From: Somniosus microcephalus
Taxonomy: Eukaryota
Assembly: GCA_052327205.1 (NCBI GenBank)
Contig: CM126225.1
Span: forward strand, 11,904,001-11,968,000
Length of the DNA stretch: 64,000 bases
Reading direction: 5' to 3'
How positions within the stretch are numbered: the first letter of the stretch is position 1; each line of letters opens with the position of its first letter. A program made the translations under genes and the position numbers. The notes under the pieces are model-generated. The model ran no database searches. It worked only from the letters and a program-made list of their open reading frames with translations, and was not told the origin of the DNA. This document shows positions 1-64,000 of this stretch, in pieces.

Positions 1-243
1 AGGGGCTGATACCCCTCTCCCCTGTACCTGATTCCCCCTCTCTCCACAAGGTCTCATCTCCCCCTCCACTCAAAGTCTGATTCCCCCTCCACTCAAAGTC
101 TGATTCCTCGACCCCTCACTCGTCGATATCTGGTTCCCTCTCTTTCCTCAGTTTCCAGGGTCTTGTTCTCATTCTCTCTCAGTCCTGATTCTCTCCTCAA
201 TATTAGAGCACCCCTTCTCCAAGGTGTCTGGTTTCAATTCTTT

Positions 244-780
244 CCCAGGGTCTGATCCCACATCCCCCCAGGGACAGACCCCACCTGCCCCCAGGGTCTG
301 ACCCCACCAACCCCAGGGTTTGATCTCACCTCCCCCCAGGGTCTGATCCCACCTCCCCAGGGTCTAATCCCACCTCCCCAGGGCCTGATCCCACCTCCCC
401 CAGGGTCTGATCCCACCAACCCCAGGGTCTGATCCCACCTCCCCAGGGCCTGATCCCACCTCCCCTCAGGGTCTGATCCCACCAACCCCAGGGTCTGATC
501 CCACCTCCCCCAAGGTCTGACCCCACATCCCCCCAGGGTCTGACCCCACATTCCCACAGGGTCTGACCCCACATCCCTCCAGGGTCTGATCCCACCTCCC
601 CCCAGGGTCTGATCCCACCAATCCCAGGGTCTGATCCCACCTTCCCCCAGGGACAGACCCCACCTGCCCCCAGGGTCTGATCCCACCAACCCCAGGGACA
701 GACCCCACCTCCCCCAGGGTCTGATCCCACCTCCCCCAGGGTCTGATCCCACCTCCCCCAGGGTCTGTGTCACCTCCCCT
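244..780. repeat. ~22-23 bp C-rich minisatellite (CCCCCAGGGTCTGATCCCACCT)n, long allele
   Basis: Directly visible tandem repeat, embedded in a longer degenerate TCTGATTCCCC...CCTCAG repeat field. Confidence 0.95.
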
Positions 781-1476
781 CAATTTCATATTATCCTTCT
801 CCCCAGTTTTTCATTTCCTCTCCCCCTCAGTGTCTGAATTCCCCTCTTCACTCAGTTTTATGATTCCTCTTGCCCCTCCGTGTCTCATTCCCCATCCCCT
901 CAGTATCTGATTCCAGTTCGTCCTCAAATTTGATTCCCCCTCGCCTTAGTGTCTGAATCCCTCTCTCCCTGAGGCCTTGATTCCTTTCTCTCCCTCGTAG
1001 TCTGATACCCGCTCCCCTCAGTATAAGATTATCCCTCTCTTCAGTCTCTCATTTCCTTTCTCCGCTTAGAACCAGATTCTCCTCTCGCTCAGAATAGTTT
1101 CTTTCGCCACGCACTGCCTGATCCCAGCTCTCCCCTCAGCATCAGATTCCCCCTCTCCCCTCAGTATTGATTTCCCACTCTAGTCAGCCCCTGATTCCGC
1201 CTATCCCCTGTACCTGATTCTCTCTGTCCCATCAGGGATGAATTACCCCTCTAGGGTTCAGAGAACTTTTGCTGTTACACAGTCTCAGGGAATGATACCA
1301 AGAGTTACAGAAGAGAGTCACGCTAACAATTAATACCGTCAAATCAATACTGATCGACCAGTGACTATTAATTGCACAAGTAATATACAACTTCAAACTA
1401 TTTCTCCAGACATGAGTTATCACAACAAACAGACCATGCGCATTTCGAACCGACTCGGGATGCAGGTTAAACTCAC

Positions 1477-1608
1477 CATTTCATTCAGTTTGCTGAGAGT
1501 CTCTGTGTTGAGAGCTTGCTGTAACTGCAGCCTCTCACAGCCCAGACTCAGGGTCCCGGGCAACAAGACCAAAACAATCCAACATCTCCAAACACTCGCC
1601 AAAGCCAT
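1477..1608 (-). pseudogene. Orphan IFN exon 1 (1B): partial paralog or alternative first exon
   Basis: Encodes MALASVWRCWIVLVLLPGTLSLGCERLQLQQALNTETLSKLNEM followed by a GTGAGT donor. 4 nt differences from exon 1A. Only a decayed exon-2 relic (~1245-1305) follows it. Its partner gene would lie left of the window. Confidence 0.8.
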
Positions 1609-1814
1609 GCTGGACCGAGCCGGGGTAAAGCACCGATCTGAAAATTGGGAAACCGATCGGATCCGAGTTCAGCCCAGAAAACGGTTCTTGTTCACCGAAT
1701 GAAACTCTGGAAGTGGAAATGCAGCCGCTTGTGATCCGGGAGCGACCGCCTGTGTTGCCGAGTGATGTGGGTGTGCGGCTCGACACTGTGGGAGCTCTCA
1801 CTGCCATGGTGCCG

Positions 1815-6872: not shown

Positions 6873-9001
6873 TCAGTTTTTTCTTCTTCTGATTTGTGCC
6901 GTTATGAAAAGGATCTGTTGTAATCGGGCCCTAGTTTCAGCGCGGATTATTTCCCAGGCGCAGTCACTGAATCTCTGAGAAAGAGAAATATTCAGGAAAA
7001 TCCATTAGAAAATGAACAGGTTTGAATTGGGTAAACGAAAACGGTCAGTAATCTCAGTAAAATATCAATTTTCCCACCTTCTGTTTGAGAAACTTTCTCA
7101 GTTTCCTAAAGTATTTGTGAATTGAGGCGTTTCTCCTCGGCCTGGACTCTGAGCCTGGTTTCCTGACACATTCTTCCAGCTCCTCGAGCTGCCGATCCAG
7201 GAGAAGACGGAAGTTTTCCACCTTGTCCCGGGGCCATGTGACTGAGCCCAGGTTCATGCTGTAGATCTTGGTGAGGTGACGCAGTGTTTGATGGACAATC
7301 TGGATCCTGTCCTGGGTCTGTGCACAATACACACAAGGACGTTAGAGGGGACCTGTTCCTTTTTAGGTTTCGAGTAGTTATGGAAAAGGACAAGCATCAA
7401 TCACAAGTGAATATAGTCAACTGGTGTATTGGAATCTAAGATTTGCAGGTGAAACAGTAAATTTGCAATGGAAAGCCTTCAAAGAGGAAATCGTTTGGTG
7501 CAGTCTAGACACATCCGCACCAGGGGGAAAGGAAGGGCATGCAAAGCTATCTCTCCCCGGATCACTGAAGATGGAGATTTCAATGAAACAGCAAAAGGAG
7601 GCTTATGATAAACGTTAAGCTTATAATACAGTAGAGAACCAAGCTGAATGCAGAAGGTGCGAACTGAAAAAGGAAATGAGACGCAAAGAGAATGTATGAG
7701 AATAGATTAGTGGGTGATATTAAAGGGCTCCCAAATGTGTTTTAGAAGCATTAAAAAATTGTGGCTTTCCAAAGGGAATTGGTTAAGTACCTGAAAAAAA
7801 ATGGCATGGCTCCGGGGAAAGGGCGGGGAGTGGGACTGGCTGAAGTGCTCTTGCAGAGAGCCGGCACGGGCTCGACGGGCCGAATGGCCTCCTTATGTGC
7901 TGTAACCATTCTATGATTCTATGAAATAGTAAAAGGATATTCAAAGGATGGGTGGGATCATCTAGGAACCAGAATGGAAGATTAGAGGGGCTTCAATGAA
8001 TAGAGGGTGCGAGATGATTAGAGGGAGTTAGATAGTTAAAGGGAGTGAGATAATAGGTGAGATAGAGAGAGAGAGCTAGTTAGAGAGAGTGAGCTAGTTA
8101 CAGAGAGTGAGCTAGTTAGAGAGAGTGAGCTAGTTAGAGAGTGAGCTAGTTACAGAGAGTGAGCTAGTTGGAGAGAGTGAGCTAGTTACAGAGAGTGAGC
8201 TAGTTAGAGAGAGTGAGCTAGTTAGAGAGTGAGCTAGTTACAGAGAGTGAGCTAGTTACAGAGAGTGAGCTAGTTGGAGAGAGTGAGCTAGTTACAGAGA
8301 GTGAGCTAGTTAGAGAGAGTGAGCTAGTTAGAGAGTGAGCTAGTTACAGAGAGTGAGCTAGTTAGAGAGAGTGAGCTAGTTAGAGAGTGAGCTAGTTAGA
8401 GAGAGTGAGCTAGTTAGAGAGAGTGAGCTAGTTAGAGAGAGTGACATGGAGTGAGTGAATGGCTCTTCTGGCACTTTCACCTCAATGGGCGGCTAACACT
8501 GGATTTAAATTTCCTGATTAAAATTCTGATCCGTGTGTTTATCTTACTCATGCTTTCTATAAAACTTTTGCTTGAATAAAGTGAAATAAAATAGAGTTCA
8601 CTCACCTGTAATCCCTCTGAAAGTTTCACCAGATTCAAGGACTTGGTTTTCAGCGAGAGGCTCTCTCTTACACACTGTCGGGGAAAGGGGCCGCCCTGAG
8701 AGGAGAAGGCAATCAGTGTTACAATCAGTTCCCTTGAAATACTGGAGAATCGCTGCCTATTAATTGCGTAAAATTACAAACACATCAAACATTTTCTCCT
8801 GATATAACTTTCCACAACAAGCACAGAGTATATGGTTCGGATCCGGCTCTGAATGCAGGTTAAACTCACCATTTCATTCAGTTTGCTCAGAGTCTCTGTG
8901 TTGAGAACTTGCTGTAACTGCAGCTTCTCACAGCCCAGACTCAGGGTCCCGGGCAACAAGACCAACACAATCCAACATCTCCAAACACTCGCCAAAGCCA
9001 T
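6873..9001 (-). CDS. IFN: Type I interferon, 4 coding exons, 187 aa (copy 1; Ser56 variant)
   Basis: Exons: 9001-8870 (MALASVWRCWIVLVLLPGTLSLGCEKLQLQQVLNTETLSKLNEM), 8695-8606 (GGPFPRQCVRESLSLKTKSLNLVKLSEGLQ), 7317-7078 (TQDRIQIVHQTLRHL...ELEECVRK...HKYFRKLRKFLKQK), 6974-6873 (RFSDCAWEIIRAETRARLQQILFITAQIRRRKN*). All junctions are GT-AG and phase 0. Hydrophobic signal peptide; Cys at 24, 52, 124, 159; YFxKL...L...CAWExIRxE is the type I IFN signature. Confidence 0.93.
7410..7980 (+). mobile_element. Intron-2 CR1 ORF2 fragment with a nested CR1 3' tail (~7760-7923); present in each unit
   Basis: Translation QWKAFKEEI...KQQKEAYDKR. 3' tail ...gggccgaatggcctcct...tgtaaccATTCTATGATTCTATGA. Confidence 0.8.
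8063..8443. repeat. 16/18-bp intronic minisatellite (GAGAGTGAGCTAGTTA[C/G]A)n; copies at ~17961-18323 (one unit shorter), 27886, 37784, 47682, 57581
   Basis: Directly visible tandem repeat in IFN intron 2. Confidence 0.95.
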
Positions 9002-10678: not shown

Positions 10679-11374
10679 CAATTTCATATTATCCTTCTCC
10701 CCAGTTTTTCATTTCCTCTCCCCCTCAGTGTCTGAATTCCCCTCTTCACTCAGTTTTATGATTCCTCTTGCCCCTCCGTGTCTCATTCCCCATCCCCTCA
10801 GTATCTGATTCCAGTTCGTCCTCAAATTTGATTCCCCCTCGCCTTAGGGTCTGAATCCCTCTCTCCCTGAGGCTTTGATTCCTTTCTCTCCCTCGGAGTC
10901 TGATACCCGCTCGCCTCAGTATAAGATTACCCCTTTCTTCAGTCTCTCATTTCCTTTCTCCGCTTAGAGCCAGATTCTCCTCTCGCTCAGAATAGTTTCT
11001 TTCGCCACGCACTGCCTGATCCCAGCTCTCCCCTCAGCATCAGATTCTTCTTCTCCCCTCAGTATTGATTTCCCACTCTAGTCAGCCCCTGATTCCGCCT
11101 ATCCCCTGTACCTGATTCTCTCTGTCCCATCAGGGATGAATTACCCCTCTAGGGTTCAGAGAACTTTTGCTGTTACACAGTCTCAGGGAATGATACCAAG
11201 AGTTACAGAAGAGAGTCACGCTAACAATTAATACCGTCAAATCAATACTGATCGACCAGTGACTATTAATTGCACAAGTAATATACAACTTCAAACTATT
11301 TCTCCAGACATGAGTTATCACAACAAACAGACCATGCGCATTTCGAACCGACTCGGGATGCAGGTTAAACTCAC

Positions 11375-11506
11375 CATTTCATTCAGTTTGCTGAGAGTCT
11401 CTGTGTTGAGAGCTTGCTGTAACTGCAGCCTCTCACAGCCCAGACTCAGGGTCCCGGGCAACAAGACCAAAACAATCCAACATCTCCAAACACTCGCCAA
11501 AGCCAT
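11375..11506 (-). pseudogene. Orphan IFN exon 1B (upstream of gene copy 1)
   Basis: Same 44-codon exon with intact ATG and phase-0 GTGAGT donor. Confidence 0.8.
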
Positions 11507-12428
11507 GCTGGACCGAGCCGGGGTAAAGCACCGATCTGAAAATTGGGAAACCGATCGGATCCGAGTTCAGCCCAGAAAACGGTTCTTGTTCACCGAATGA
11601 AACTCTGGAAGTGGAAATGCAGCCGCTTGTGATCCGGGAGCGACCGCCTGTGTTGCCGAGTGATGTGGGTGTGCGGCTCGACACTGTGGGAGCTCTCACT
11701 GCCATGGTGCCGGCTTTAAAGTGGGGCATTACATTCGAAAAGTGAAATCGGGCCGCAGGAGTTTTGGCACAGCCGCTGGAGACCAATGATTTGTGCGGTT
11801 TCTTTCTGGGGTAAGGAATGGAAAAGCTGGAGATTCCTGAACCAGCGAGTGGGAAATCTCCGACAGAAGATCCCAACCAGCGCCCGGTTCCAGCTCCGTG
11901 TTGTGTGGACTCGGATCACCGGGGCACTGAGCTGGTGTAGAGGGAGGCTCTGTATTGGGGGAGTGTGGACATTGCAGAGACCCCGCCTCACAGCCCAGGG
12001 GCACCGCTTCATGCCGACTGACTCCGCTCGGATTCACCTGTCGGAGACTCTGCTTCTTAAGGTTGTCGTTTCCGGGTTATTTTCTGGAGTCATTTTCAGA
12101 CATTGTTTTTAAAGAATATTTAATCCGTTTCGACTCTGAGTCCGAAGGGGATCCCGCTGCCTTTTCTTTCATCGTTTCTTTCTCGACCCTCTCCCGGGAA
12201 AGTGTCCGTGTCAGTTTCTCTGTGGAAATGAACCTTGTGTCAATTTCACCGAAAGCGAAAGTGTCTCAGGGAAAGTGACGAGTTTTGTCATTTCCGAAAG
12301 TGCGGAGTGATTGTAAACAGAACGGGTCAGACTGAGAGGGCTGAGGGGGAGCTGGGAAAAGGTTTGGGATCTCCGGGATAGCCCCGGTTACACAGGGAAT
12401 GTCGCAAAATCACTCTCAGCTGCAACTG

Positions 12429-16770: not shown

Positions 16771-18881
16771 TCAGTTTTTTCTTCTTCTGATTTGTGCCGT
16801 TATGAAAAGGATCTGTTGTAATCGGGCCCTAGTTTCAGCGCGGATTATTTCCCAGGCGCAGTCACTGAATCTCTGAGAAAGAGAAATATTCAGGAAAATC
16901 CATTAGAAAATGAACAGGTTTGAATTGGGTAAACGAAAACGGTCAGTAATCTCAGTAAAATATCAATTTTCCCACCTTCTGTTTGAGAAACTTTCTCAGT
17001 TTCCTAAAGTATTTGTGAATTGAGGCGTTTCTCCTCGGCCTGGACTCTGAGCCTGGTTTCCTGACACATTCTTCCAGCTCCTCGAGCTGCCGATCCAGGA
17101 GAAGACGGAAGTTTTCCACCTTGTCCCGGGGCCATGTGACTGAGCCCAGGTTCATGCTGTCGATCTTGGTGAGGTGACGCAGTGTTTGATGGACAATCTG
17201 GATCCTGTCCTGGGTCTGTGCACAATACACACAAGGACGTTAGAGGGGACCTGTTCCTTTTTAGGTTTCGAGTAGTTATGGAAAAGGACAAGCATCAATC
17301 ACAAGTGAATATAGTCAACTGGTGTATTGGAATCTAAGATTTGCAGGTGAAACAGTAAATTTGCAATGGAAAGCCTTCAAAGAGGAAATCGTTTGGTGCA
17401 GTCTAGACACATCCGCACCAGGGGGAAAGGAAGGGCATGCAAAGCTATCTCTCCCCGGATCACTGAAGATGGAGATTTCAATGAAACAGCAAAAGGAGGC
17501 TTATGATAAACGTTAAGCTTATAATACAGTAGAGAACCAAGCTGAATGCAGAAGGTGCGAACTGAAAAAGGAAATGAGACGCAAAGAGAATGTATGAGAA
17601 TAGATTAGTGGGTGATATTAAAGGGCTCCCAAATGTGTTTTAGAAGCATTAAAAAATTGTGGTTTTCCAAAGGGAATTGGTTAAGTACCTGAAAAAAAAT
17701 GGCATGGCTCCGGGGAAAGGGCGGGGAGTGGGACTGGCTGAAGTGCTCTTGCAGAGAGCCGGCACGGGCTCGACGGGCCGAATGGCCTCCTTATGTGCTG
17801 TAACCATTCTATGATTCTATGAAATAGTAAAAGGATATTCAAAGGATGGGTGGGATCATCTAGGAACCAGAATGGAAGATTAGAGGGGCTTCAATGAATA
17901 GAGGGTGCGAGATGATTAGAGGGAGTTAGATAGTTAAAGGGAGTGAGATAATAGGTGAGATAGAGAGAGAGAGCTAGTTAGAGAGAGTGAGCTAGTTACA
18001 GAGAGTGAGCTAGTTAGAGAGAGTGAGCTAGTTAGAGAGTGAGCTAGTTACAGAGAGTGAGCTAGTTGGAGAGAGTGAGCTAGTTACAGAGAGTGAGCTA
18101 GTTAGAGAGAGTGAGCTAGTTAGAGAGTGAGCTAGTTACAGAGAGTGAGCTAGTTACAGAGAGTGAGCTAGTTGGAGAGAGTGAGCTAGTTACAGAGAGT
18201 GAGCTAGTTAGAGAGAGTGAGCTAGTTAGAGAGTGAGCTAGTTACAGAGAGTGAGCTAGTTAGAGAGAGTGAGCTAGTTAGAGAGTGAGCTAGTTAGAGA
18301 GAGTGAGCTAGTTAGAGAGAGTGACATGGAGTGAGTGAATGGCTCTCCTGGCACTTTCACCTCAATGGGCGGCTAACACTGGATTTAAATTTCCTGATTA
18401 AAATTCTGATCCGCGTGTTTATCTTACTCATGCTTTCTATAAAACTTTTGCTTGAATAAAGTGAAATAAAATAGAGTTCACTCACCTGTAATCCCTCTGA
18501 AAGTTTCACCAGATTCAAGGACTTGGTTTTCAGCGAGAGCCTCTCTCTTACACACTGTCGGGGAAAGGGGCCGCCCTGAGAGGAGAAGGCAATCAGTGTT
18601 ACAATCAGTTCCCTTGAAATACTGGAGAATCGCTGCCTATTAATTGCGTAAAATTACAAACACATCAAACATTTTCTCCTGATATAACTTTCCACAACAA
18701 GCACAGAGTATATGGTTCGGATCCGGCTCTGAATGCAGGTTAAACTCACCATTTCATTCAGTTTGCTCAGAGTCTCTGTGTTGAGAACTTGCTGTAACTG
18801 CAGCTTCTCACAGCCCAGACTCAGGGTCCCGCGCAACAAGACCAACACAATCCAACATCTCCAAACACTCGCCAAAGCCAT
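16771..18881 (-). CDS. IFN: Type I interferon, 4 exons, 187 aa (copy 2; P17R and Y93D)
   Basis: Exons 18881-18750, 18575-18486, 17215-16976, 16872-16771. Splice sites intact; substitutions at 18832 and 17161. Confidence 0.9.
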
Positions 18882-26000: not shown

Positions 26001-26695
26001 TAATTTGGGAATGGGGTTTGGACCCACAACCTACTGACTTAGAGTATTACCTCTGAGCCAAGCTGACAACAGTGTAAAATTAGCAATACGTTACATTTAC
26101 TTATAAAATATATATATTTTTAATTCGGGGTCTTTAAAATAGCTCATCGTTCGCAGTCTGTATTAAACATGTCATTGAGAAATCTTCTGTTCCTTCTCAT
26201 TTTTGACTTTACACGTTGTGAAAAATCTGCAACATTTTATTGTGTCAAGCAATAAACTTGACTCAATCCTGATGAGATGAGGAGGAAATGGTAGCGCCAG
26301 CCGGGTGGGGCAGCCCAGAGAGCTGACACTGGGAAAGCAGCGAGTGGAATAAGGTGTCCCACTGAGAGAACCTGAGATGAAACTTTTCATTGTCGCAGCT
26401 GCCAGTCCCTGAAGGAAGGGACAGAGGCAGGATTTTCCTCAGACTCGCCCCAGTCAAAGCTCTAACATTTCATCACAGGCAACTGTCACAGCAATAACTA
26501 TCAATAAATTAAAATAAATGATCAAACACGGATCAATATCAAAACATTCCTTGTTCTCCATCAGTCACCTTGCACCCAATCGCGATATTACAATACAATA
26601 TAATATATTAAAATATAATTTAAAAAAAAAAATGCGGTCTTTTAAATAAATATTCTTTGATCCCAGTCTGTACGAAATATGCCTTTGGAAAGTCT

Positions 26696-28824
26696 TCAGT
26701 TTTTTCTTCTTCTGATTTGTGCCGTTATGAAAAGGATCTGTTGTAATCGGGCCCTAGTTTCAGCGCGGATTATTTCCCAGGCGCAGTCACTGAATCTCTG
26801 AGAAAGAGAAATATTCAGGAAAATCCATTAGAAAATGAACAGGTTTGAATTGGGTAAACGAAAACGGTCAGTAATCTCAGTAAAATATCAATTTTCCCAC
26901 CTTCTGTTTGAGAAACTTTCTCAGTTTCCTAAAGTATTTGTGAATTGAGGCGTTTCTCCTCGGCCTGGACTCTGAGCCTGGTTTCCTGACACATTCTTCC
27001 AGCTCCTCGAGCTGCCGATCCAGGAGAAGACGGAAGTTTTCCACCTTGTCCCGGGGCCATGTGACTGAGCCCAGGTTCATGCTGTAGATCTTGGTGAGGT
27101 GACGCAGTGTTTGATGGACAATCTGGATCCTGTCCTGGGTCTGTGCACAATACACACAAGGACGTTAGAGGGGACCTGTTCCTTTTTAGGTTTCGAGTAG
27201 TTATGGAAAAGGACAAGCATCAATCACAAGTGAATATAGTCAACTGGTGTATTGGAATCTAAGATTTGCAGGTGAAACAGTAAATTTGCAATGGAAAGCC
27301 TTCAAAGAGGAAATCGTTTGGTGCAGTCTAGACACATCCGCACCAGGGGGAAAGGAAGGGCATGCAAAGCTATCTCTCCCCGGATCACTGAAGATGGAGA
27401 TTTCAATGAAACAGCAAAAGGAGGCTTATGATAAACGTTAAGCTTATAATACAGTAGAGAACCAAGCTGAATGCAGAAGGTGCGAACTGAAAAAGGAAAT
27501 GAGACGCAAAGAGAATGTATGAGAATAGATTAGTGGGTGATATTAAAGGGCTCCCAAATGTGTTTTAGAAGCATTAAAAAATTGTGGCTTTCCAAAGGGA
27601 ATTGGTTAAGTACCTGAAAAAAAATGGCATGGCTCCGGGGAAAGGGCGGGGAGTGGGACTGGCTGAAGTGCTCTTGCAGAGAGCCGGCACGGGCTCGACG
27701 GGCCGAATGGCCTCCTTATGTGCTGTAACCATTCTATGATTCTATGAAATAGTAAAAGGATATTCAAAGGATGGGTGGGATCATCTAGGAACCAGAATGG
27801 AAGATTAGAGGGGCTTCAATGAATAGAGGGTGCGAGATGATTAGAGGGAGTTAGATAGTTAAAGGGAGTGAGATAATAGGTGAGATAGAGAGAGAGAGCT
27901 AGTTAGAGAGAGTGAGCTAGTTACAGAGAGTGAGCTAGTTAGAGAGAGTGAGCTAGTTAGAGAGTGAGCTAGTTACAGAGAGTGAGCTAGTTGGAGAGAG
28001 TGAGCTAGTTACAGAGAGTGAGCTAGTTAGAGAGAGTGAGCTAGTTAGAGAGTGAGCTAGTTACAGAGAGTGAGCTAGTTACAGAGAGTGAGCTAGTTGG
28101 AGAGAGTGAGCTAGTTACAGAGAGTGAGCTAGTTAGAGAGAGTGAGCTAGTTAGAGAGTGAGCTAGTTACAGAGAGTGAGCTAGTTAGAGAGAGTGAGCT
28201 AGTTAGAGAGTGAGCTAGTTAGAGAGAGTGAGCTAGTTAGAGAGAGTGAGCTAGTTAGAGAGAGTGACATGGAGTGAGTGAATGGCTCTTCTGGCACTTT
28301 CACCTCAATGGGCGGCTAACACTGGATTTAAATTTCCTGATTAAAATTCTGATCCGTGTGTTTATCTTACTCATGCTTTCTATAAAACTTTTGCTTGAAT
28401 AAAGTGAAATAAAATAGAGTTCACTCACCTGTAATCCCTCTGAAAGTTTCACCAGATTCAAGGACTTGGTTTTCAGCGAGAGCCTCTCTCTTACACACTG
28501 TCGGGGAAAGGGGCCGCCCTGAGAGGAGAAGGCAATCAGTGTTACAATCAGTTCCCTTGAAATACTGGAGAATCGCTGCCTATTAATTGCGTAAAATTAC
28601 AAACACATCAAACATTTTCTCCTGATATAACTTTCCACAACAAGCACAGAGTATATGGTTCGGATCCGGCTCTGAATGCAGGTTAAACTCACCATTTCAT
28701 TCAGTTTGCTCAGAGTCTCTGTGTTGAGAACTTGCTGTAACTGCAGCTTCTCACAGCCCAGACTCAGGGTCCCGGGCAACAAGACCAACACAATCCAACA
28801 TCTCCAAACACTCGCCAAAGCCAT
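26696..28824 (-). CDS. IFN: Type I interferon, 4 exons, 187 aa (copy 3; consensus)
   Basis: Exons 28824-28693, 28518-28429, 27140-26901, 26797-26696. Intact frame and splice sites, CAWE motif. Confidence 0.93.
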
Positions 28825-30008
28825 GCTGGACCGAGCCAAGGCAAAGCACCGATCTGAAGGATAAGAAACCGAGCGGATTCGAGTTCAGCTCAGAAAACGG
28901 TTCTTGTTCACTGAATGAAACTCTGGAAGTCGAAATGCAGCCGCTTGTGATCCCGGAGCGACCAGTTGTGTTGTCGAGTGTGGGTGTGCGGCTGGACACT
29001 GTGGGAGCTGTCACTTTAGGAGGAGGGACTGGCGATGTGGGCCATTACAATCCAAAAGTGAAATCGGGCTGCAGGAGTGTTGGAAGAGCTGCAGGAGAGC
29101 AATAGTTTGTGCGGTTCCTTTCTGAGGTAAGGAATTCAAAAGCTGGAGATTCCTGAACCAGCGACTGGAAAATCCCCGAGAGAAGGTCCTAACCATAGAT
29201 TCATTGAAACAGAGAATGGTTACAGCGCAGAAACAGGCCACTCGGCCCGTCGAGCCCGCGTCAGCTCAATGTCCCGTACATTTGTATCAATACTATCAAT
29301 ATGGATTTTGAAAATCTTTATTGGTTTCTCCAACATGTATGGACTCGCATCACGGGGGCACTAAGGGGGCAGACGGGTAGATTGATTGATGGTGGACTCT
29401 AATACCCCTTTCCCCTCTCAGCTCACATTCCCCCACTTTCCTCGGTGTCTCCTTGTCCTTCTTCCCTCAGTTTCTGATCCCCACCCTTCAGTTTATAATT
29501 TCCCCTCTCCACAGTGTCTGGTTCGCATTCTCCCCTCACACACTATTCGCGGATTCAGAGTCTGATCCCACCTCCCACCAGGGTCTGGTTCCCTCTCTCC
29601 CCTCAGTAGCTCATATGTTCTCCGCTCGCTGTTTGATTTCTGTCTACCCTCAAGATCTGATTCCGCACTTCCCTCACCATCACATTCTGCCTTTTCCCAC
29701 AGTATTGCTTCCCCTCTGCCCTCAGACTCTCATTTCCCCTTTAATATCAGGGCACATCTCTCCTCAGGGGCTGATACCCCTCTCCCCTGTACCTGATTCC
29801 CCCTCTCTCCACAAGGTCTCATCTCCCCCTCCACTCAAAGTCTGATTCCCCCTCCACTCAAAGTCTGATTCCTCGACCCCTCACTCGTCGATATCTGGTT
29901 CCCTCTCTTTCCTCAGTTTCCAGGGTCTTGTTCTCATTCTCTCTCAGTCCTGATTCTCTCCTCAATATTAGAGCACCCCTTCTCCAAGGTGTCTGGTTTC
30001 AATTCTTC

Positions 30009-30501
30009 CCCAGGGTCTGATCCCATATCCCCCCAGGGACAGACCCCACCTGCCCCCAGGGTCTGACCCCACCAACCCCAGGGTTTGATCTCACCTCCCC
30101 CCAGGGTCTGATCCCACCTCCCCAGGGTCTAATCCCACCTCCCCAGGGCCTGATCCCACCTCCCCCAGGGTCTGATCCCACCAACCCCAGGGTCTGATCC
30201 CACCTCCCCAGGGCCTGATCCCACCTCCCCTCAGGGTCTGATCCCACCAACCCCAGGGTCTGATCCCACCTCCCCCAAGGTCTGACCCCACATCCCCCCA
30301 GGGTCTGACCCCACATTCCCACAGGGTCTGACCCCACATCCCTCCAGGGTCTGATCCCACCTCCCCCCAGGGTCTGATCCCACCTGCCCCCAGGGTCTGA
30401 TCCCACCTTCCCCCAGGGACAGACCCCACCTCCCCCAGGGTCTGATCCCACCTCCCCCAGGGTCTGATCCCACCTCCCCCAGGGTCTGTGTCACCTCCCC
30501 T
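30009..30501. repeat. C-rich minisatellite, short allele
   Basis: Tandem repeat visible. Confidence 0.95.
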
Positions 30502-31197
30502 CAATTTCATATTATCCTTCTCCCCAGTTTTTCATTTCCTCTCCCCCTCAGTGTCTGAATTCCCCTCTTCACTCAGTTTTATGATTCCTCTTGCCCCTCC
30601 GTGTCTCATTCCCCATCCCCTCAGTATCTGATTCCAGTTCGTCCTCAAATTTGATTCCCCCTCGCCTTAGGGTCTGAATCCCTCTCTCCCTGAGGCTTTG
30701 ATTCCTTTCTCTCCCTCGGAGTCTGATACCCGCTCGCCTCAGTATAAGATTACCCCTTTCTTCAGTCTCTCATTTCCTTTCTCCGCTTAGAGCCAGATTC
30801 TCCTCTCGCTCAGAATAGTTTCTTTCGCCACGCACTGCCTGATCCCAGCTCTCCCCTCAGCATCAGATTCTTCTTCTCCCCTCAGTATTGATTTCCCACT
30901 CTAGTCAGCCCCTGATTCCGCCTATCCCCTGTACCTGATTCTCTCTGTCCCATCAGGGATGAATTACCCCTCTAGGGTTCAGAGAACTTTTGCTGTTACA
31001 CAGTCTCAGGGAATGATACCAAGAGTTACAGAAGAGAGTCACGCTAACAATTAATACCGTCAAATCAATACTGATCGACCAGTGACTATTAATTGCACAA
31101 GTAATATACAACTTCAAACTATTTCTCCAGACATGAGTTATCACAACAAACAGACCATGCGCATTTCGAACCGACTCGGGATGCAGGTTAAACTCAC

Positions 31198-36593: not shown

Positions 36594-38722
36594 TCAGTTT
36601 TTTCTTCTTCTGATTTGTGCCGTTATGAAAAGGATCTGTTGTAATCGGGCCCTAGTTTCAGCGCGGATTATTTCCCAGGCGCAGTCACTGAATCTCTGAG
36701 AAAGAGAAATATTCAGGAAAATCCATTAGAAAATGAACAGGTTTGAATTGGGTAAACGAAAACGGTCAGTAATCTCAGTAAAATATCAATTTTCCCACCT
36801 TCTGTTTGAGAAACTTTCTCAGTTTCCTAAAGTATTTGTGAATTGAGGCGTTTCTCCTCGGCCTGGACTCTGAGCCTGGTTTCCTGACACATTCTTCCAG
36901 CTCCTCGAGCTGCCGATCCAGGAGAAGACGGAAGTTTTCCACCTTGTCCCGGGGCCATGTGACTGAGCCCAGGTTCATGCTGTAGATCTTGGTGAGGTGA
37001 CGCAGTGTTTGATGGACAATCTGGATCCTGTCCTGGGTCTGTGCACAATACACACAAGGACGTTAGAGGGGACCTGTTCCTTTATAGGTTTCGAGTAGTT
37101 ATGGAAAAGGACAAGCATCAATCACAAGTGAATATAGTCAACTGGTGTATTGGAATCTAAGATTTGCAGGTGAAACAGTAAATTTGCAATGGAAAGCCTT
37201 CAAAGAGGAAATCGTTTGGTGCAGTCTAGACACATCCGCACCAGGGGGAAAGGAAGGGCATGCAAAGCTATCTCTCCCCGGATCACTGAAGATGGAGATT
37301 TCAATGAAACAGCAAAAGGAGGCTTATGATAAACGTTAAGCTTATAATACAGTAGAGAACCAAGCTGAATGCAGAAGGTGCGAACTGAAAAAGGAAATGA
37401 GACGCAAAGAGAATGTATGAGAATAGATTAGTGGGTGATATTAAAGGGCTCCCAAATGTGTTTTAGAAGCATTAAAAAATTGTGGCTTTCCAAAGGGAAT
37501 TGGTTAAGTACCTGAAAAAAAATGGCATGGCTCCGGGGAAAGGGCGGGGAGTGGGACTGGCTGAAGTGCTCTTGCAGAGAGCCGGCACGGGCTCGACGGG
37601 CCGAATGGCCTCCTTATGTGCTGTAACCATTCTATGATTCTATGAAATAGTAAAAGGATATTCAAAGGATGGGTGGGATCATCTAGGAACCAGAATGGAA
37701 GATTAGAGGGGCTTCAATGAATAGAGGGTGCGAGATGATTAGAGGGAGTTAGATAGTTAAAGGGAGTGAGATAATAGGTGAGATAGAGAGAGAGAGCTAG
37801 TTAGAGAGAGTGAGCTAGTTACAGAGAGTGAGCTAGTTAGAGAGAGTGAGCTAGTTAGAGAGTGAGCTAGTTACAGAGAGTGAGCTAGTTGGAGAGAGTG
37901 AGCTAGTTACAGAGAGTGAGCTAGTTAGAGAGAGTGAGCTAGTTAGAGAGTGAGCTAGTTACAGAGAGTGAGCTAGTTACAGAGAGTGAGCTAGTTGGAG
38001 AGAGTGAGCTAGTTACAGAGAGTGAGCTAGTTAGAGAGAGTGAGCTAGTTAGAGAGTGAGCTAGTTACAGAGAGTGAGCTAGTTAGAGAGAGTGAGCTAG
38101 TTAGAGAGTGAGCTAGTTAGAGAGAGTGAGCTAGTTAGAGAGAGTGAGCTAGTTAGAGAGAGTGACATGGAGTGAGTGAATGGCTCTTCTGGCACTTTCA
38201 CCTCAATGGGCGGCTAACACTGGATTTAAATTTCCTGATTAAAATTCTGATCCGTGTGTTTATCTTACTCATGCTTTCTATAAAACTTTTGCTTGAATAA
38301 AGTGAAATAAAATAGAGTTCACTCACCTGTAATCCCTCTGAAAGTTTCACCAGATTCAAGGACTTGGTTTTCAGCGAGAGCCTCTCTCTTACACACTGTC
38401 GGGGAAAGGGGCCGCCCTGAGAGGAGAAGGCAATCAGTGTTACAATCAGTTCCCTTGAAATACTGGAGAATCGCTGCCTATTAATTGCGTAAAATTACAA
38501 ACACATCAAACATTTTCTCCTGATATAACTTTCCACAACAAGCACAGAGTATATGGTTCGGATCCGGCTCTGAATGCAGGTTAAACTCACCATTTCATTC
38601 AGTTTGCTCAGAGTCTCTGTGTTGAGAACTTGCTGTAACTGCAGCTTCTCACAGCCCAGACTCAGGGTCCCGGGCAACAAGACCAACACAATCCAACATC
38701 TCCAAACACTCGCCAAAGCCAT
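36594..38722 (-). CDS. IFN: Type I interferon, 4 exons, 187 aa (copy 4; consensus)
   Basis: Exons 38722-38591, 38416-38327, 37038-36799, 36695-36594. Intact. Confidence 0.93.
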
Positions 38723-46491: not shown

Positions 46492-48620
46492 TCAGTTTTT
46501 TCTTCTTCTGATTTGTGCCGTTATGAAAAGGATCTGTTGTAATCGGGCCCTAGTTTCAGCGCGGATTATTTCCCAGGCGCAGTCACTGAATCTCTGAGAA
46601 AGAGAAATATTCAGGAAAATCCATTAGAAAATGAACAGGTTTGAATTGGGTAAACGAAAACGGTCAGTAATCTCAGTAAAATATCAATTTTCCCACCTTC
46701 TGTTTGAGAAACTTTCTCAGTTTCCTAAAGTATTTGTGAATTGAGGCGTTTCTCCTCGGCCTGGACTCTGAGCCTGGTTTCCTGACACATTCTTCCAGCT
46801 CCTCGAGCTGCCGATCCAGGAGAAGACGGAAGTTTTCCACCTTGTCCCGGGGCCATGTGACTGAGCCCAGGTTCATGCTGTAGATCTTGGTGAGGTGACG
46901 CAGTGTTTGATGGACAATCTGGATCCTGTCCTGGGTCTGTGCACAATACACACAAGGACGTTAGAGGGGACCTGTTCCTTTTTAGGTTTCGAGTAGTTAT
47001 GGAAAAGGACAAGCATCAATCACAAGTGAATATAGTCAACTGGTGTATTGGAATCTAAGATTTGCAGGTGAAACAGTAAATTTGCAATGGAAAGCCTTCA
47101 AAGAGGAAATCGTTTGGTGCAGTCTAGACACATCCGCACCAGGGGGAAAGGAAGGGCATGCAAAGCTATCTCTCCCCGGATCACTGAAGATGGAGATTTC
47201 AATGAAACAGCAAAAGGAGGCTTATGATAAACGTTAAGCTTATAATACAGTAGAGAACCAAGCTGAATGCAGAAGGTGCGAACTGAAAAAGGAAATGAGA
47301 CGCAAAGAGAATGTATGAGAATAGATTAGTGGGTGATATTAAAGGGCTCCCAAATGTGTTTTAGAAGCATTAAAAAATTGTGGCTTTCCAAAGGGAATTG
47401 GTTAAGTACCTGAAAAAAAATGGCATGGCTCCGGGGAAAGGGCGGGGAGTGGGACTGGCTGAAGTGCTCTTGCAGAGAGCCGGCACGGGCTCGACGGGCC
47501 GAATGGCCTCCTTATGTGCTGTAACCATTCTATGATTCTATGAAATAGTAAAAGGATATTCAAAGGATGGGTGGGATCATCTAGGAACCAGAATGGAAGA
47601 TTAGAGGGGCTTCAATGAATAGAGGGTGCGAGATGATTAGAGGGAGTTAGATAGTTAAAGGGAGTGAGATAATAGGTGAGATAGAGAGAGAGAGCTAGTT
47701 AGAGAGAGTGAGCTAGTTACAGAGAGTGAGCTAGTTAGAGAGAGTGAGCTAGTTAGAGAGTGAGCTAGTTACAGAGAGTGAGCTAGTTGGAGAGAGTGAG
47801 CTAGTTACAGAGAGTGAGCTAGTTAGAGAGAGTGAGCTAGTTAGAGAGTGAGCTAGTTACAGAGAGTGAGCTAGTTACAGAGAGTGAGCTAGTTGGAGAG
47901 AGTGAGCTAGTTACAGAGAGTGAGCTAGTTAGAGAGAGTGAGCTAGTTAGAGAGTGAGCTAGTTACAGAGAGTGAGCTAGTTAGAGAGAGTGAGCTAGTT
48001 AGAGAGTGAGCTAGTTAGAGAGAGTGAGCTAGTTAGAGAGAGTGAGCTAGTTAGAGAGAGTGACATGGAGTGAGTGAATGGCTCTTCTGGCACTTTCACC
48101 TCAATGGGCGGCTAACACTGGATTTAAATTTCCTGATTAAAATTCTGATCCGTGTGTTTATCTTACTCATGCTTTCTATAAAACTTTTGCTTGAATAAAG
48201 TGAAATAAAATAGAGTTCACTCACCTGTAATCCCTCTGAAAGTTTCACCAGATTCAAGGACTTGGTTTTCAGCGAGAGCCTCTCTCTTACACACTGTCGG
48301 GGAAAGGGGCTGCCCTGAGAGGAGAAGGCAATCAGTGTTACAATCAGTTCCCTTGAAATACTGGAGAATCGCTGCCTATTAATTGCGTAAAATTACAAAC
48401 ACATCAAACATTTTCTCCTGATATAACTTTCCACAACAAGCACAGAGTATATGGTTCGGATCCGGCTCTGAATGCAGGTTAAACTCACCATTTCATTCAG
48501 TTTGCTCAGAGTCTCTGTGTTGAGAACTTGCTGTAACTGCAGCTTCTCACAGCCCAGACTCAGGGTCCCGGGCAACAAGACCAACACAATCCAACATCTC
48601 CAAACACTCGCCAAAGCCAT
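46492..48620 (-). CDS. IFN: Type I interferon, 4 exons, 187 aa (copy 5; G46S)
   Basis: Exons 48620-48489, 48314-48225, 46936-46697, 46593-46492. C>T at 48311 gives GGC>AGC in exon 2. Confidence 0.92.
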
Positions 48621-51881: not shown

Positions 51882-52783
51882 AGAGAATTACAAATATTCA
51901 CAACCATCTGAGTGAAGAAATCCCTCCTCATCTCAGTCTTAAATGGCTTACCCCTTATCCTGAGACTATGTCCCCTAGTGACAGACACTCCAGCCAGGGG
52001 AAACATCCTCTCAGCCTCTACCCTTTCAAACCCCTTCAAAATCTTGTAAGTTTCAATGAGATCACCACTGATTTTTCTAAACTACAGAGAGTATAGGCCA
52101 ATTGTAAACAATCTCTCATCATAGGACAGATCTCTAATCCAAGGAATCAATCTAGTGAACCTTCGTTGCACTGCCCGAAGGTAAGTGTATCCTTGCTTAG
52201 AATTGGACACCAAAACTGTGCACAGTACTCCAGGTGTGGTCTCACCAAGGCACTGTACATTTGTAGCAAGACTTCCTTACTCTTGTACACCAACCCCCTT
52301 GCAATAAAGGCCAACATGCCAATTGCTTGCTGTACCTGCATGCGAGCTTTCTGTGTTTCTTCCCCAAGGACACCCAAATCTCTCTGAACACCAACACTTG
52401 AAAGTTTCTCACCATTTAAAAAATATTCTGTTTTTCTATTCTTTATACCAAAGTGAATAACCTCACATTTCCGTACATTATACTCTGTCTGCCACCTTAC
52501 TTCCCACTCACTTAGTCTATCTATATCCCTTTGAAGATTCTTTGTGTTCTCCTCACAGCTTACTGTCCCACCTAGCTTTGTATCATCAGCAAACTTGGAT
52601 GCATTACACTTGGTCCCTTCATCTGGGTCATTAATATAGATTGTAAATAGCTGAGGCCCCAACACTGACACTTGCGGCACACCAATATTTACAGCCTGCC
52701 AACCTGAAAAAGATTTGTTTATCCCTACTCTCTGTTTTCTGTCCGTTAACCAATCCTCTATCCATGCTACTATATTACCCCAG
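51882..52783 (-). mobile_element. Chimeric CR1 LINE fragment (unit 6), extended toward the ORF2 C-terminus by a different CR1 sequence
   Basis: 52322-52783 matches the other units. 51882-52321 is a diverged CR1 (GMLAFIARGLVYKSKEVLLQMYSALVRPHLEYC...; TRGHSLRIRGKPFKTEMRRDFFTQMVVNICNSL). Confidence 0.9.
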
Positions 52784-56390: not shown

Positions 56391-58519
56391 TCAGTTTTTT
56401 CTTCTTCTGATTTGTGCCGTTATGAAAAGGATCTGTTGTAATCGGGCCCTAGTTTCAGCGCGGATTATTTCCCAGGCGCAGTCACTGAATCTCTGAGAAA
56501 GAGAAATATTCAGGAAAATCCATTAGAAAATGAACAGGTTTGAATTGGGTAAACGAAAACGGTCAGTAATCTCAGTAAAATATCAATTTTCCCACCTTCT
56601 GTTTGAGAAACTTTCTCAGTTTCCTAAAGTATTTGTGAATTGAGGCGTTTCTCCTCGGCCTGGACTCTGAGCCTGGTTTCCTGACACATTCTTCCAGCTC
56701 CTCGAGCTGCCGATCCAGGAGAAGACGGAAGTTTTCCACCTTGTCCCGGGGCCATGTGACTGAGCCCAGGTTCATGCTGTAGATCTTGGTGAGGTGACGC
56801 AGTGTTTGATGGACAATCTGGATCCTGTCCTGGGTCTGTGCACAATACACACAAGGACGTTAGAGGGGACCTGTTCCTTTTTAGGTTTCGAGTAGTTATG
56901 GAAAAGGACAAGCATCAATCACAAGTGAATATAGTCAACTGGTGTATTGGAATCTAAGATTTGCAGGTGAAACAGTAAATTTGCAATGGAAAGCCTTCAA
57001 AGAGGAAATCGTTTGGTGCAGTCTAGACACATCCGCACCAGGGGGAAAGGAAGGGCATGCAAAGCTATCTCTCCCCGGATCACTGAAGATGGAGATTTCA
57101 ATGAAACAGCAAAAGGAGGCTTATGATAAACGTTAAGCTTATAATACAGTAGAGAACCAAGCTGAATGCAGAAGGTGCGAACTGAAAAAGGAAATGAGAC
57201 GCAAAGAGAATGTATGAGAATAGATTAGTGGGTGATATTAAAGGGCTCCCAAATGTGTTTTAGAAGCATTAAAAAATTGTGGCTTTCCAAAGGGAATTGG
57301 TTAAGTACCTGAAAAAAAATGGCATGGCTCCGGGGAAAGGGCGGGGAGTGGGACTGGCTGAAGTGCTCTTGCAGAGAGCCGGCACGGGCTCGACGGGCCG
57401 AATGGCCTCCTTATGTGCTGTAACCATTCTATGATTCTATGAAATAGTAAAAGGATATTCAAAGGATGGGTGGGATCATCTAGGAACCAGAATGGAAGAT
57501 TAGAGGGGCTTCAATGAATAGAGGGTGCGAGATGATTAGAGGGAGTTAGATAGTTAAAGGGAGTGAGATAATAGGTGAGATAGAGAGAGAGAGCTAGTTA
57601 GAGAGAGTGAGCTAGTTACAGAGAGTGAGCTAGTTAGAGAGAGTGAGCTAGTTAGAGAGTGAGCTAGTTACAGAGAGTGAGCTAGTTGGAGAGAGTGAGC
57701 TAGTTACAGAGAGTGAGCTAGTTAGAGAGAGTGAGCTAGTTAGAGAGTGAGCTAGTTACAGAGAGTGAGCTAGTTACAGAGAGTGAGCTAGTTGGAGAGA
57801 GTGAGCTAGTTACAGAGAGTGAGCTAGTTAGAGAGAGTGAGCTAGTTAGAGAGTGAGCTAGTTACAGAGAGTGAGCTAGTTAGAGAGAGTGAGCTAGTTA
57901 GAGAGTGAGCTAGTTAGAGAGAGTGAGCTAGTTAGAGAGAGTGAGCTAGTTAGAGAGAGTGACATGGAGTGAGTGAATGGCTCTTCTGGCACTTTCACCT
58001 CAATGGGCGGCTAACACTGGATTTAAATTTCCTGATTAAAATTCTGATCCGTGTGTTTATCTTACTCATGCTTTCTATAAAACTTTTGCTTGAATAAAGT
58101 GAAATAAAATAGAGTTCACTCACCTGTAATCCCTCTGAAAGTTTCACCAGATTCAAGGACTTGGTTTTCAGCGAGAGCCTCTCTCTTACACACTGTCGGG
58201 GAAAGGGGCCGCCCTGAGAGGAGAAGGCAATCAGTGTTACAATCAGTTCCCTTGAAATACTGGAGAATCGCTGCCTATTAATTGCGTAAAATTACAAACA
58301 CATCAAACATTTTCTCCTGATATAACTTTCCACAACAAGCACAGAGTATATGGTTCGGATCCGGCTCTGAATGCAGGTTAAACTCACCATTTCATTCAGT
58401 TTGCTCAGAGTCTCTGTGTTGAGAACTTGCTGTAACTGCAGCTTCTCACAGCCCAGACTCAGGGTCCCGGGCAACAAGACCAACACAATCCAACATCTCC
58501 AAACACTCGCCAAAGCCAT
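56391..58519 (-). CDS. IFN: Type I interferon, 4 exons, 187 aa (copy 6; consensus)
   Basis: Exons 58519-58388, 58213-58124, 56835-56596, 56492-56391. Intact. Confidence 0.93.
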
Positions 58520-60196: not shown

Positions 60197-60892
60197 CAAT
60201 TTCATATTATCCTTCTCCCCAGTTTTTCATTTCCTCTCCCCCTCAGTGTCTGAATTCCCCTCTTCACTCAGTTTTATGATTCCTCTTGCCCCTCCGTGTC
60301 TCATTCCCCATCCCCTCAGTATCTGATTCCAGTTCGTCCTCAAATTTGATTCCCCCTCGCCTTAGGGTCTGAATCCCTCTCTCCCTGAGGCTTTGATTCC
60401 TTTCTCTCCCTCGGAGTCTGATACCCGCTCGCCTCAGTATAAGATTACCCCTTTCTTCAGTCTCTCATTTCCTTTCTCCGCTTAGAGCCAGATTCTCCTC
60501 TCGCTCAGAATAGTTTCTTTCGCCACGCACTGCCTGATCCCAGCTCTCCCCTCAGCATCAGATTCTTCTTCTCCCCTCAGTATTGATTTCCCACTCTAGT
60601 CAGCCCCTGATTCCGCCTATCCCCTGTACCTGATTCTCTCTGTCCCATCAGGGATGAATTACCCCTCTAGGGTTCAGAGAACTTTTGCTGTTACACAGTC
60701 TCAGGGAATGATACCAAGAGTTACAGAAGAGAGTCACGCTAACAATTAATACCGTCAAATCAATACTGATCGACCAGTGACTATTAATTGCACAAGTAAT
60801 ATACAACTTCAAACTATTTCTCCAGACATGAGTTATCACAACAAACAGACCATGCGCATTTCGAACCGACTCGGGATGCAGGTTAAACTCAC

Positions 60893-61024
60893 CATTTCAT
60901 TCAGTTTGCTGAGAGTCTCTGTGTTGAGAGCTTGCTGTAACTGCAGCCTCTCACAGCCCAGACTCAGGGTCCCGGGCAACAAGACCAAAACAATCCAACA
61001 TCTCCAAACACTCGCCAAAGCCAT
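60893..61024 (-). pseudogene. Orphan IFN exon 1B (upstream of gene copy 6)
   Basis: Repeat-unit copy of 1477-1608. Confidence 0.8.
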
Positions 61025-61946
61025 GCTGGACCGAGCCGGGGTAAAGCACCGATCTGAAAATTGGGAAACCGATCGGATCCGATTTCAGCCCAGAAAACGG
61101 TTCTTGTTCACCGAATGAAACTCTGGAAGTGGAAATGCAGCCGCTTGTGATCCGGGAGCGACCGCCTGTGTTGCCGAGTGATGTGGGTGTGCGGCTCGAC
61201 ACTGTGGGAGCTCTCACTGCCATGGTGCCGGCTTTAAAGTGGGGCATTACATTCGAAAAGTGAAATCGGGCCGCAGGAGTTTTGGCACAGCCGCTGGAGA
61301 CCAATGATTTGTGCGGTTTCTTTCTGGGGTAAGGAATGGAAAAGCTGGAGATTCCTGAACCAGCGAGTGGGAAATCTCCGACAGAAGATCCCAACCAGCG
61401 CCCGGTTCCAGCTCCGTGTTGTGTGGACTCGGATCACCGGGGCACTGAGCTGGTGTAGAGGGAGGCTCTGTATTGGGGGAGTGTGGACATTGCAGAGACC
61501 CCGCCTCACAGCCCAGGGGCACCGCTTCATGCCGACTGACTCCGCTCGGATTCACCTGTCGGAGACTCTGCTTCTTAAGGTTGTCGTTTCCGGGTTATTT
61601 TCTGGAGTCATTTTCAGACATTGTTTTTAAAGAATATTTAATCCGTTTCGACTCTGAGTCCGAAGGGGATCCCGCTGCCTTTTCTTTCATCGTTTCTTTC
61701 TCGACCCTCTCCCGGGAAAGTGTCCGTGTCAGTTTCTCTGTGGAAATGAACCTTGTGTCAATTTCACCGAAAGCGAAAGTGTCTCAGGGAAAGTGACGAG
61801 TTTTGTCATTTCCGAAAGTGCGGAGTGATTGTAAACAGAACGGGTCAGACTGAGAGGGCTGAGGGGGAGCTGGGAAAAGGTTTGGGATCTCCGGGATAGC
61901 CCCGGTTACACAGGGAATGTCGCAAAATCACTCTCAGCTGCAACTG

Positions 61947-62682
61947 ATCACCTCTCATTTTTCTAAACTCCAGAGAGTATAGGCCCATTCTACACAATCT
62001 CTCATCATAGGACAACCCTCTCATCCCAGGAATCAATCTAGTGAACCTTCATTGCACCGCCTCCAAGGCAAGTATATCCTTCCTTAGATAAGGAGACCAA
62101 AACTGTGCCCAGTACTCCAGGTGTGGTCTCACCAAGGCCCTGTACAATTGTAGCAAGACTTCCTTACTCTTATACTCTGACCCCCTTACAATAAAGGCCA
62201 ACATGCCATTTCCCTTCCTTATTGCTTGCTGTACCTGCATGCGAGCTTTCTGTGTTTCTTCCCCAAGGACACCCAAATCTCTCTGAACACCAACACTTGA
62301 AAGTTTCTCACCATTTAAAAAATATTCTGTTTTTCTATTCTTTATACCAAAGTGAATAACCTCACATTTCCGTACATTATACTCTGTCTGCCACCTTACT
62401 TCCCACTCACTTAGTCTATCTATATCCCTTTGAAGATTCTTTGTGTTCTCCTCACAGCTTACTGTCCCACCTAGCTTTGTATCATCAGCAAACTTGGATG
62501 CATTACACTTGGTCCCTTCATCTGGGTCATTAATATAGATTGTAAATAGCTGAGGCCCCAACACTGACACTTGCGGCACACCAATATTTACAGCCTGCCA
62601 ACCTGAAAAAGATTTGTTTATCCCTACTCTCTGTTTTCTGTCCGTTAACCAATCCTCTATCCATGCTACTATATTACCCCAG
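61947..62682 (-). mobile_element. CR1 LINE RT fragment (unit 7 copy)
   Basis: ORF 62049-62711. Confidence 0.92.
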
Positions 62683-64000
62683 CAGTTAGACAACATAAAG
62701 GGAAATAGCAAGGAATCTTATCAGCACATTAATCTACAATATATAATAATCTTACATTCGTGCACAAATCCTTCTGCATAACTTGACTTCCCGATTTCAC
62801 CTTTTTGTCACACATTTGTTGTAGCGCTTCCGTGTTGTAGGACTTCATGAGGAGGGCAAATTGGTCAATTTATCCCCATTTTTGCCTCCTTTGCCTCCGC
62901 TACCATCCCACTACCAAAACTGTGGCAGTTTTAAGAAGCATTTTTTTCTCGAGTTTCGGCTCAAACTCATTTGCAAATCGTCCAAAGCAGAACCTGCCAT
63001 GAACCAACGCAATCGGGCAACGTTTGAAAATGTATTTTTTTTAAAACTGCCTTAAAACTATTCATTGATATGTTGAAGAGCGGTAACTGGGCGCAGTTTG
63101 ATTAATACAGCTGAAAATGGGGTTATCACGATAAATAAACATTTTGAATCACAGTGTCAATCCAGCACCTGTGAGGAACATGGTTTTAAATAATTGAAAA
63201 TTACTTTTATATAATATACAGAAACATTCGTTCGTTATATAGGGGTACAGTAGTCAGCTCCTTATTAAATTAAAACAAAATTATATTGAAAAGTTTTTAA
63301 TATGTGCTGATTAGTGTCCTTGTGCCAAAAAGAATCAGTTCAATTTTTGGAGCCTCCTTGAAAGTCAGCAAACGAGTGCAATAAGCAGAAAATCCCGATG
63401 GTGATTAATTCGACCTGGGGACCAGGCCAGTTTTGTGGGCGGGGCCAGCTACCACCGCGATGTTTTTTTAAGTGGCGCAAAAAATAGCAGCAACTCGATT
63501 TGCGCTGGGCGTAATTTCCACTTAAAATTCCGTGACTTTTTCTGCAGGTTTCGTCGATTTAAGGTGAATTGCACTGAAAAAACCAGCACAACCGAGCGGC
63601 AACTCCAGTTTACTGTTGCCAATTATAAATTCCTATGTCGATATTTATTATGGGTCTTGTTTACGTGAACTTGACAGTCTGGTTGCAGAAACTAGCCACG
63701 TAGTTCAAATGAAAAGAGGTAGGGATTGTGATGCGAGTAAGTGGGTGGGACAAAGAGGAATGAATAGTGGGAAGATGAAATAGTAGGGAATGCAAAGGGG
63801 GCAAATGTGGGGATAAACTGACCCATGTGCCCTCCCCGTGAAAGATCATGGGAAGATGGAATCATATTTTAGGCCACAAACCTTCCTTCCTGAGAGTGTA
63901 CTTGAGTTTGAATAAGTGGTAAAGATCCTTAATCTGTGACATGCCTCAGTTAGAAAGAGAGACTTGCATTTATATATCGCCTTTCACAACCACCGGACAT

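Follow-up and report, generated by a model that had tools for sequence, protein, structure and literature searches.

We analysed a 64,000-nucleotide stretch of the Somniosus microcephalus genome (GenBank assembly GCA_052327205.1, contig CM126225.1, positions 11,904,001 to 11,968,000 of the forward strand), hereafter the window, which is filled from end to end by tandem copies of a type I interferon (IFN) gene. Self-alignment gave long diagonals at multiples of ~9.9 kb, and anchor-to-anchor mapping resolved six full units of 9898, 9925, 9898, 9898, 9898 and 9899 bp, arranged head-to-tail between two partial units: positions 1-4000 align to the unit on the left, and the final 584 bp on the right are identical to five of the six units. 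Because both end partials match the array, it continues beyond the window in both directions. Every unit holds one gene, and near-identity between units extends to introns, spacers, minisatellites and the relic of a long interspersed nuclear element (LINE). A prior sequence-only reading had described six complete 187-residue IFN genes at ~9.9 kb spacing, with near-identical introns, transposon relics and spacers, in an array running off both window ends; all of this was borne out, the full units differing by 0.04-0.31%. Its picture of a single intron-containing gene per unit held for the gene itself and missed a second cassette bearing a first exon: there are two such cassettes per unit, with seven distal and six proximal examples in the window. 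The array and its genes are as follows.

1..64000, no strand: the array as a whole, with six full 9.9-kb units and a partial unit at each end (self-alignment, anchors, unit mapping)
6873..9001, minus strand: IFN gene copy 1, exons 9001-8870, 8695-8606, 7317-7078 and 6974-6873; private R56S
16771..18881, minus strand: IFN gene copy 2, in the most diverged unit; private P17R (signal peptide) and Y93D
26696..28824, minus strand: IFN gene copy 3, majority coding sequence
36594..38722, minus strand: IFN gene copy 4, majority coding sequence
46492..48620, minus strand: IFN gene copy 5, mapped by alignment; private G46S
56391..58519, minus strand: IFN gene copy 6, majority coding sequence

All six genes lie on the minus strand and share a model of four exons (132, 90, 240 and 102 nt, or 44, 30, 80 and 33 codons) joined by GT-AG introns of phase 0; in each, the splice sites are intact and 187 codons run without an internal stop. 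Cartilaginous-fish type I interferons have four exons and three introns, an ancestral third intron having been lost (PMC5332411), and the window gene fits this pattern, with a long fused third exon. Ungapped identities, counted by eye against sequences in Table S2 of PMC6640115, were 147/186 to dogfish IFN2_sqac (25/44, 19/30, 73/80 and 30/32 by exon), 135/186 to skate IFN1_leer (33/44, 22/30, 58/80 and 22/32) and 58/78 to a catshark fragment (Scca_1). The mature cysteines C24, C52, C124 and C159, which may pair as disulphides, match the dogfish and skate sequences in position, and a hydrophobic stretch ahead of C24, matched in the relatives, is a putative signal peptide, both judged by eye. 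Because of the identity at 135-147 of 186 residues to published dogfish and skate interferons, there is little doubt that the gene is a type I interferon of a known elasmobranch lineage; gene structure and hand comparison thus support the earlier attribution to a shark or ray, and the ~92% match to dogfish over exons 3-4 would point to a shark. The IFN-f-related clade of Redmond 2019 is weakly supported (posterior probability 0.53; PMC6640115), and these shark and skate sequences probably correspond to its starred expansion.

By the same hand counts, the two halves of the protein have different closest relatives. Over exons 1-2 (e.g. 28429-28824) it is closer to skate (55/74) than to dogfish (44/74); over exons 3-4 (e.g. 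26696-27140) it is much closer to dogfish (103/112) than to skate (80/112). This contrast suggests either paralogues with variable N-terminal halves or exon-level exchange among shark interferons.

Unit comparisons were made over ~9,457 columns, with an aberrant patch in unit 5 (described below) masked, and the full units proved 99.7-99.96% identical overall. Units 3-6 differ from one another by 4-5 substitutions (0.04-0.05%) and from unit 1 by 9-10, and unit 2 is the most diverged, at 24-29 substitutions from every other unit. Substitutions occupy 37 variable sites (23 of them transitions), and all six full units carry private ones (6, 21, 1, 2, 2 and 2 in units 1-6). Private variants lie, for instance, at 8660, 17161, 34824, 48311 and 53852. 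At the epaulette shark mutation rate of 7e-10 per base per generation (nucleotide diversity 0.002; PMC10587355), units 3-6 would have split ~3.5e5 generations ago (1.7e5 to 1.8e6 over the interval of the rate) and unit 2 ~1.9e6 generations ago, dates that borrow the rate of another species, that conversion resets and that sequence errors inflate. The copies would thus be as alike as alleles or more so, yet need not be young in years. Recent amplification or homogenisation is supported, as had been proposed; the qualifier "very recent" needs scaling to ~3.5e5 to 1.9e6 generations.

Several patterns bear on exchange between units. Unit 2 and the left partial unit have in common 11 substitutions and a 45-bp minisatellite gain, and unit 1, which lies between them, is without them. 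Differences between units 2 and 3 are clustered, 21 of 24 falling within 38% of the unit (a tract picked after inspection), and a four-gamete test found 1 of 78 site pairs incompatible. A strict dimer repeat was rejected as a description of the array: the unit-2 type recurs once, two units away, and units 3-6 do not alternate. At position 13489 in unit 1 and the equivalent sites, successive units of the array carry G, A, G, A, G, G and A, possibly the trace of an earlier two-unit duplication.

Although all six genes are open, the description of them as near-identical copies needs refinement at the coding level, where sequences are identical in just three of the six (units 3, 4 and 6). Four bases vary among the six coding sequences and every change is non-synonymous (R56S, P17R, Y93D and G46S), a pattern compatible with neutrality. 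The neutrality test (four of four non-synonymous, P 0.36; 4 variable coding sites against 2.2 expected) has almost no power with four sites, and at that P value a case for positive selection is unsupported. Residues G46, R56 and Y93 are invariant across the sequences compared from dogfish, skate (IFN1) and catshark (PMC6640115 Table S2), and their replacements look like damage tolerated under redundancy, or errors. Copy 2, with two radical changes (P17R and Y93D), may be an early pseudogene that retains an open frame.

The second cassette lies 2.5 kb upstream of the gene and contains promoter-like DNA together with a distal exon 1 that is identical in all seven copies:

1477..1608, minus strand: distal exon 1 of a seventh gene beyond the left end (exon mapping)
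11375..11506, minus strand: distal exon 1, with intact ATG, signal peptide and GT donor; 128/132 nt identical to proximal exon 1
21300-21431, 31198-31329, 41096-41227, 50994-51125 and 60893-61024, minus strand: further copies of distal exon 1 (sequence match)
11260..11879, minus strand: 620-bp distal cassette, spanning the 5' region, exon 1 and the beginning of intron 1; its proximal counterpart at 8754-9372 is ~85% identical
30978..31013, minus strand: decayed exon-2 relic behind distal exon 1 (unit 3, approximate; local score 29, matched by 2 of 1000 shuffles)

The four differences between distal and proximal exon 1 comprise two silent and two conservative changes. Identity between the cassettes is uneven, at 316/368 upstream, 128/132 in exon 1 and 193/289 (~67%) beyond the exon, and the homology within intron 1 has a score of 76, whereas 1000 shuffles reached at most 40. 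The exon-2 relic is weak: the acceptor AG is missing at the homologous position and an in-frame stop is present. When one unit was searched in translation with the four exons, no trace was found of exons 3-4 of an older paralogue (other matches had E 0.07 or worse); the same search returned the gene's own exons and distal exon 1 alone, so that a second full gene behind distal exon 1 was rejected. Distal exon 1, its intron and the wrecked exon 2 are the remnant of an older paralogue. Since a 97% identical exon stands beside ~67% identical intron, with just two silent changes in the exon, gene conversion is probably the best explanation of its state.

These observations lead us to consider it probable that the array is real, arose in two stages and consists of redundant copies of one elasmobranch type I interferon gene. 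In an old first stage, a tandem duplicate upstream of the gene would have decayed until just exon 1, intron 1 and a ruined exon 2 remained, and gene conversion would later have re-homogenised the exon 1 and 5' region of this relic with those of the working gene. In the recent second stage, the 9.9-kb block of relic plus working gene would have been amplified by unequal crossing-over, with some exchange between units. Every copy is predicted to express the same secreted, four-cysteine cytokine under IRF and NF-kB control, such that added copies would supply dose rather than specificity, and the redundant copies would have begun to collect amino-acid changes.

The reality of the array is weighed against an alternative that we think quite unlikely, namely that assembly over-expanded a smaller cluster, made up of two to four real types or of two interleaved haplotypes, and that units 3-6 partly repeat the same molecule. 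The high likeness of units 3-6 (99.95%), with equal minisatellite lengths, is what such an expansion would give, and two 1-bp indels fall in short C runs of unit 4. In unit 5 there is also a patch of foreign sequence:

51882..52321, no strand: unit-5 patch, a different LINE copy replacing distal upstream DNA and LINE (unit alignment)

This patch puts 440 bp in place of exactly 440 bp and begins immediately past the distal cassette's upstream IRF-like motif. Over 263 bp it aligns in forward orientation with the LINE of the unit (88.6% identity), by which an inversion was rejected as the cause of the anomaly; for its remaining 178 bp the window has no further match. Of its two ends, one is offset by 12 bases and the other lacks homology. 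One-sided ectopic conversion could have produced it, and an equal length is what an assembly patching step would be expected to leave. Errors in long reads are mostly indels. The six full units show just three 1-bp indels against the 37 substitution sites, and of 15 long homopolymers (six or more bases) a single one differs in length between units; with few indels and stable homopolymers, the variation is unlike typical long-read error. Around exons 1-2 (unit-1 positions 8000-9499) the units fall into four distinct types, two of them at 3 and 6 changes from the majority, which requires more than two templates, at least three, so that two haplotypes of a single-copy gene would be insufficient. 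Together, the private and shared substitutions and the minisatellite changes argue against a one-copy locus multiplied by the assembler. Copy-number uncertainty was ubiquitous in the phased antifreeze-gene arrays of one study, in which the documented bias of graph processing ran towards fewer copies and no switch errors were found (PMC13032017). On balance, six or more real copies are likely, and at least three more likely still.

Against a real, two-stage array stand several further points. The copies are counted from assembled sequence; the 4-5 differences among units 3-6 in ~9,457 bases are within reach of residual assembly error; and the unit-5 patch, of equal length and with neither end in homologous register, suggests local assembly patching. 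Recombination is visible in just one pair of sites among the 78, the coding test is small, the homologue identities are by-eye counts, and the array ends and flanking genes lie outside the window, within which there are no flanking genes.

Given a real array, with which it is compatible, selection for interferon dose together with continuous homogenisation, as in ribosomal DNA (rDNA) or histone repeats, might hold the copies together, a reading that we regard as unlikely. All six genes are open with intact splice sites and there are signs of exchange between units, but open frames are expected without selection at 0.05-0.3% divergence, and all four coding changes alter residues, three at fixed positions and the fourth placing an arginine in the signal peptide. 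A dogfish pair in PMC6640115 Table S2 differs at just 4 of 186 residues (hand count), which hints at alleles or at near-identical paralogues elsewhere; five other skate fragments in that paper are mutually diverged, and its section 16 gives birth-and-death as the model of the field. The suggestion of the sequence-only reading that amplification served antiviral cytokine dosage is not upheld, there being no sign of purifying selection on individual copies. Its "rDNA-like" concerted evolution fits in that the units are near-identical, spacers included, and cannot in one window be distinguished from a recent burst of unequal crossing-over.

Distal exon 1 may have a role of its own as a working alternative first exon, its promoter firing and its donor splicing to exon 2 to yield a second secreted isoform that differs at two conservative residues; we consider this possible but doubtful. 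All seven copies retain the same intact ATG, signal peptide and donor, the join to exon 2 is in frame and open over 187 codons, and the distal cassette has both of the perfect IRF-element matches near the gene; two-promoter IFN genes are known in salmon, trout and zebrafish (PMC5127012). On the other side, two other pyrimidine-rich AG sites precede exon 2 (29361 and 28854), and splicing to the one at 28854, 30 nt before the proximal ATG, would by hand reckoning change the reading frame. An upstream ATG at -199 begins a frame of 90 codons that overlaps the distal start out of phase, and recent conversion alone accounts for an intact exon. The pyrimidine-rich AG at 28854 (unit 3) has a similar counterpart in the distal cassette, and could mark an intron of the 5' untranslated region (UTR) or a competing acceptor. 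A bolder combination, in which the unit is a two-promoter, two-first-exon interferon gene that captured the promoter and exon 1 of a dead paralogue as an alternative secreted start, kept in step by conversion, and in which a long, copy-number-variable array sets antiviral dose, we judge very unlikely.

In rDNA and histone repeats, near-identical units including spacers lie head-to-tail and are homogenised over long periods across species. Fish antifreeze-protein arrays are likewise composed of head-to-tail, near-identical units with their spacers. Cross-species homogenisation and copy-number selection belong to such dosage arrays; the window offers one species and one array.

Among interferons, the closest relatives are the four-exon genes of elasmobranchs (IFN1_sqac/IFN2_sqac, IFN1_leer and Scca_1; PMC6640115), which share length, four cysteines, exon boundaries and 73-79% identity by hand with the window gene; a homogeneous genomic array and a second exon 1 are not described in the parts of that paper covered here. 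The little skate IFN1 expansion, tabulated as 47 numbered contig entries, of which two have the same accession, and two further rows (PMC6640115), similarly presents many copies of the same lineage in one elasmobranch, but the five fragments compared are clearly diverged, whereas whole 9.9-kb units are 99.7-99.96% identical in the window. The elephant shark cluster likewise comprises tandem, intron-containing type I IFN genes, but few of them, three near GH and CD79 (PMC5332411). Paralogues in the human IFNA and IFNL clusters also exchange sequence by conversion, but IFNA genes are intronless, and conversion there is seen as scattered variants among distinct genes, not as whole-unit identity (PMC3244034). 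The contrast first drawn with known, diverged clusters was overstated in that IFN gene conversion (PMC3244034) and expansion in cartilaginous fish (PMC6640115) are in print. Teleost IFNa and IFNphi1, with two promoter regions, provide a likeness for a second upstream 5' module on an intron-containing IFN gene (PMC5127012, PMC5332411). Their long transcript lacks a signal peptide and yields an intracellular IFN (PMC5127012), whereas the shark distal module is a duplicate coding exon 1 with a full signal peptide of the proximal type, and so departs from the teleost arrangement in which the upstream transcript is without one.

In a search that reached few of the subscription journals, where much fish immunology appears, we found no paper describing a homogeneous array of intron-containing interferon genes or a second copy of coding exon 1. 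The gene family and its expansion in cartilaginous fish are already known; the homogeneity of the array is unusual, and the second exon 1 is its most original feature, one in which a pseudogene may have given rise to a new promoter. Vertebrate type I IFN clusters are usually read as diversifying birth-and-death families, and a near-identical array would catch the birth phase, making dose selection and neutral redundancy testable against each other. Short-read assemblies of sharks and rays may understate the number of interferon genes; if the dose reading were true, amplification by dose and not by diversification would have been collapsed and hidden in such assemblies. If the array were instead over-expanded, its value would fall to a caution about assembly and to the relic exon.

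Other features of the unit are listed below, mainly for unit 3; positions of IRF-element and NF-kB motifs are matches to consensus sequences.

31560..31570, minus strand: putative IRF element (consensus match), 241 nt upstream of the distal ATG
32074-32083, minus strand: second putative IRF-element match (consensus match)
29167..29176, minus strand: putative NF-kB site (consensus match), 352 nt upstream of the proximal ATG and the only match in the unit
26236..26695, minus strand: probable 3' UTR, with four AU-rich pentamers at most 190 nt from the stop codon and, 455 nt past that codon, a polyadenylation hexamer
27819..28271, no strand: 18/52-bp minisatellite within intron 2; the version in unit 2 has one 18-bp repeat fewer
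30008..30635, no strand: 23-bp C-rich minisatellite between the exon-1 cassettes, with ~45 bp extra in both unit 2 and the left partial unit
32357..33022, minus strand: LINE reverse-transcriptase relic, in every unit (Pfam RVT_1, E 1.6e-7)

Cassette alignment places a one-mismatch version of the IRF element in the proximal cassette. Scanning one unit (9,898 of the 64,000 bases) against Rfam at gathering thresholds gave no structured RNA genes, and ARAGORN gave no tRNA genes in the whole window. The LINE relic, which keeps a stop-free stretch of 222 codons, was amplified along with the unit; its C-terminal motifs suggest that it is CR1-like. The segments at ~4520-4990 and ~7790-7920, with their equivalents in other units, are putative shark short interspersed nuclear element (SINE) and LINE-tail repeats.

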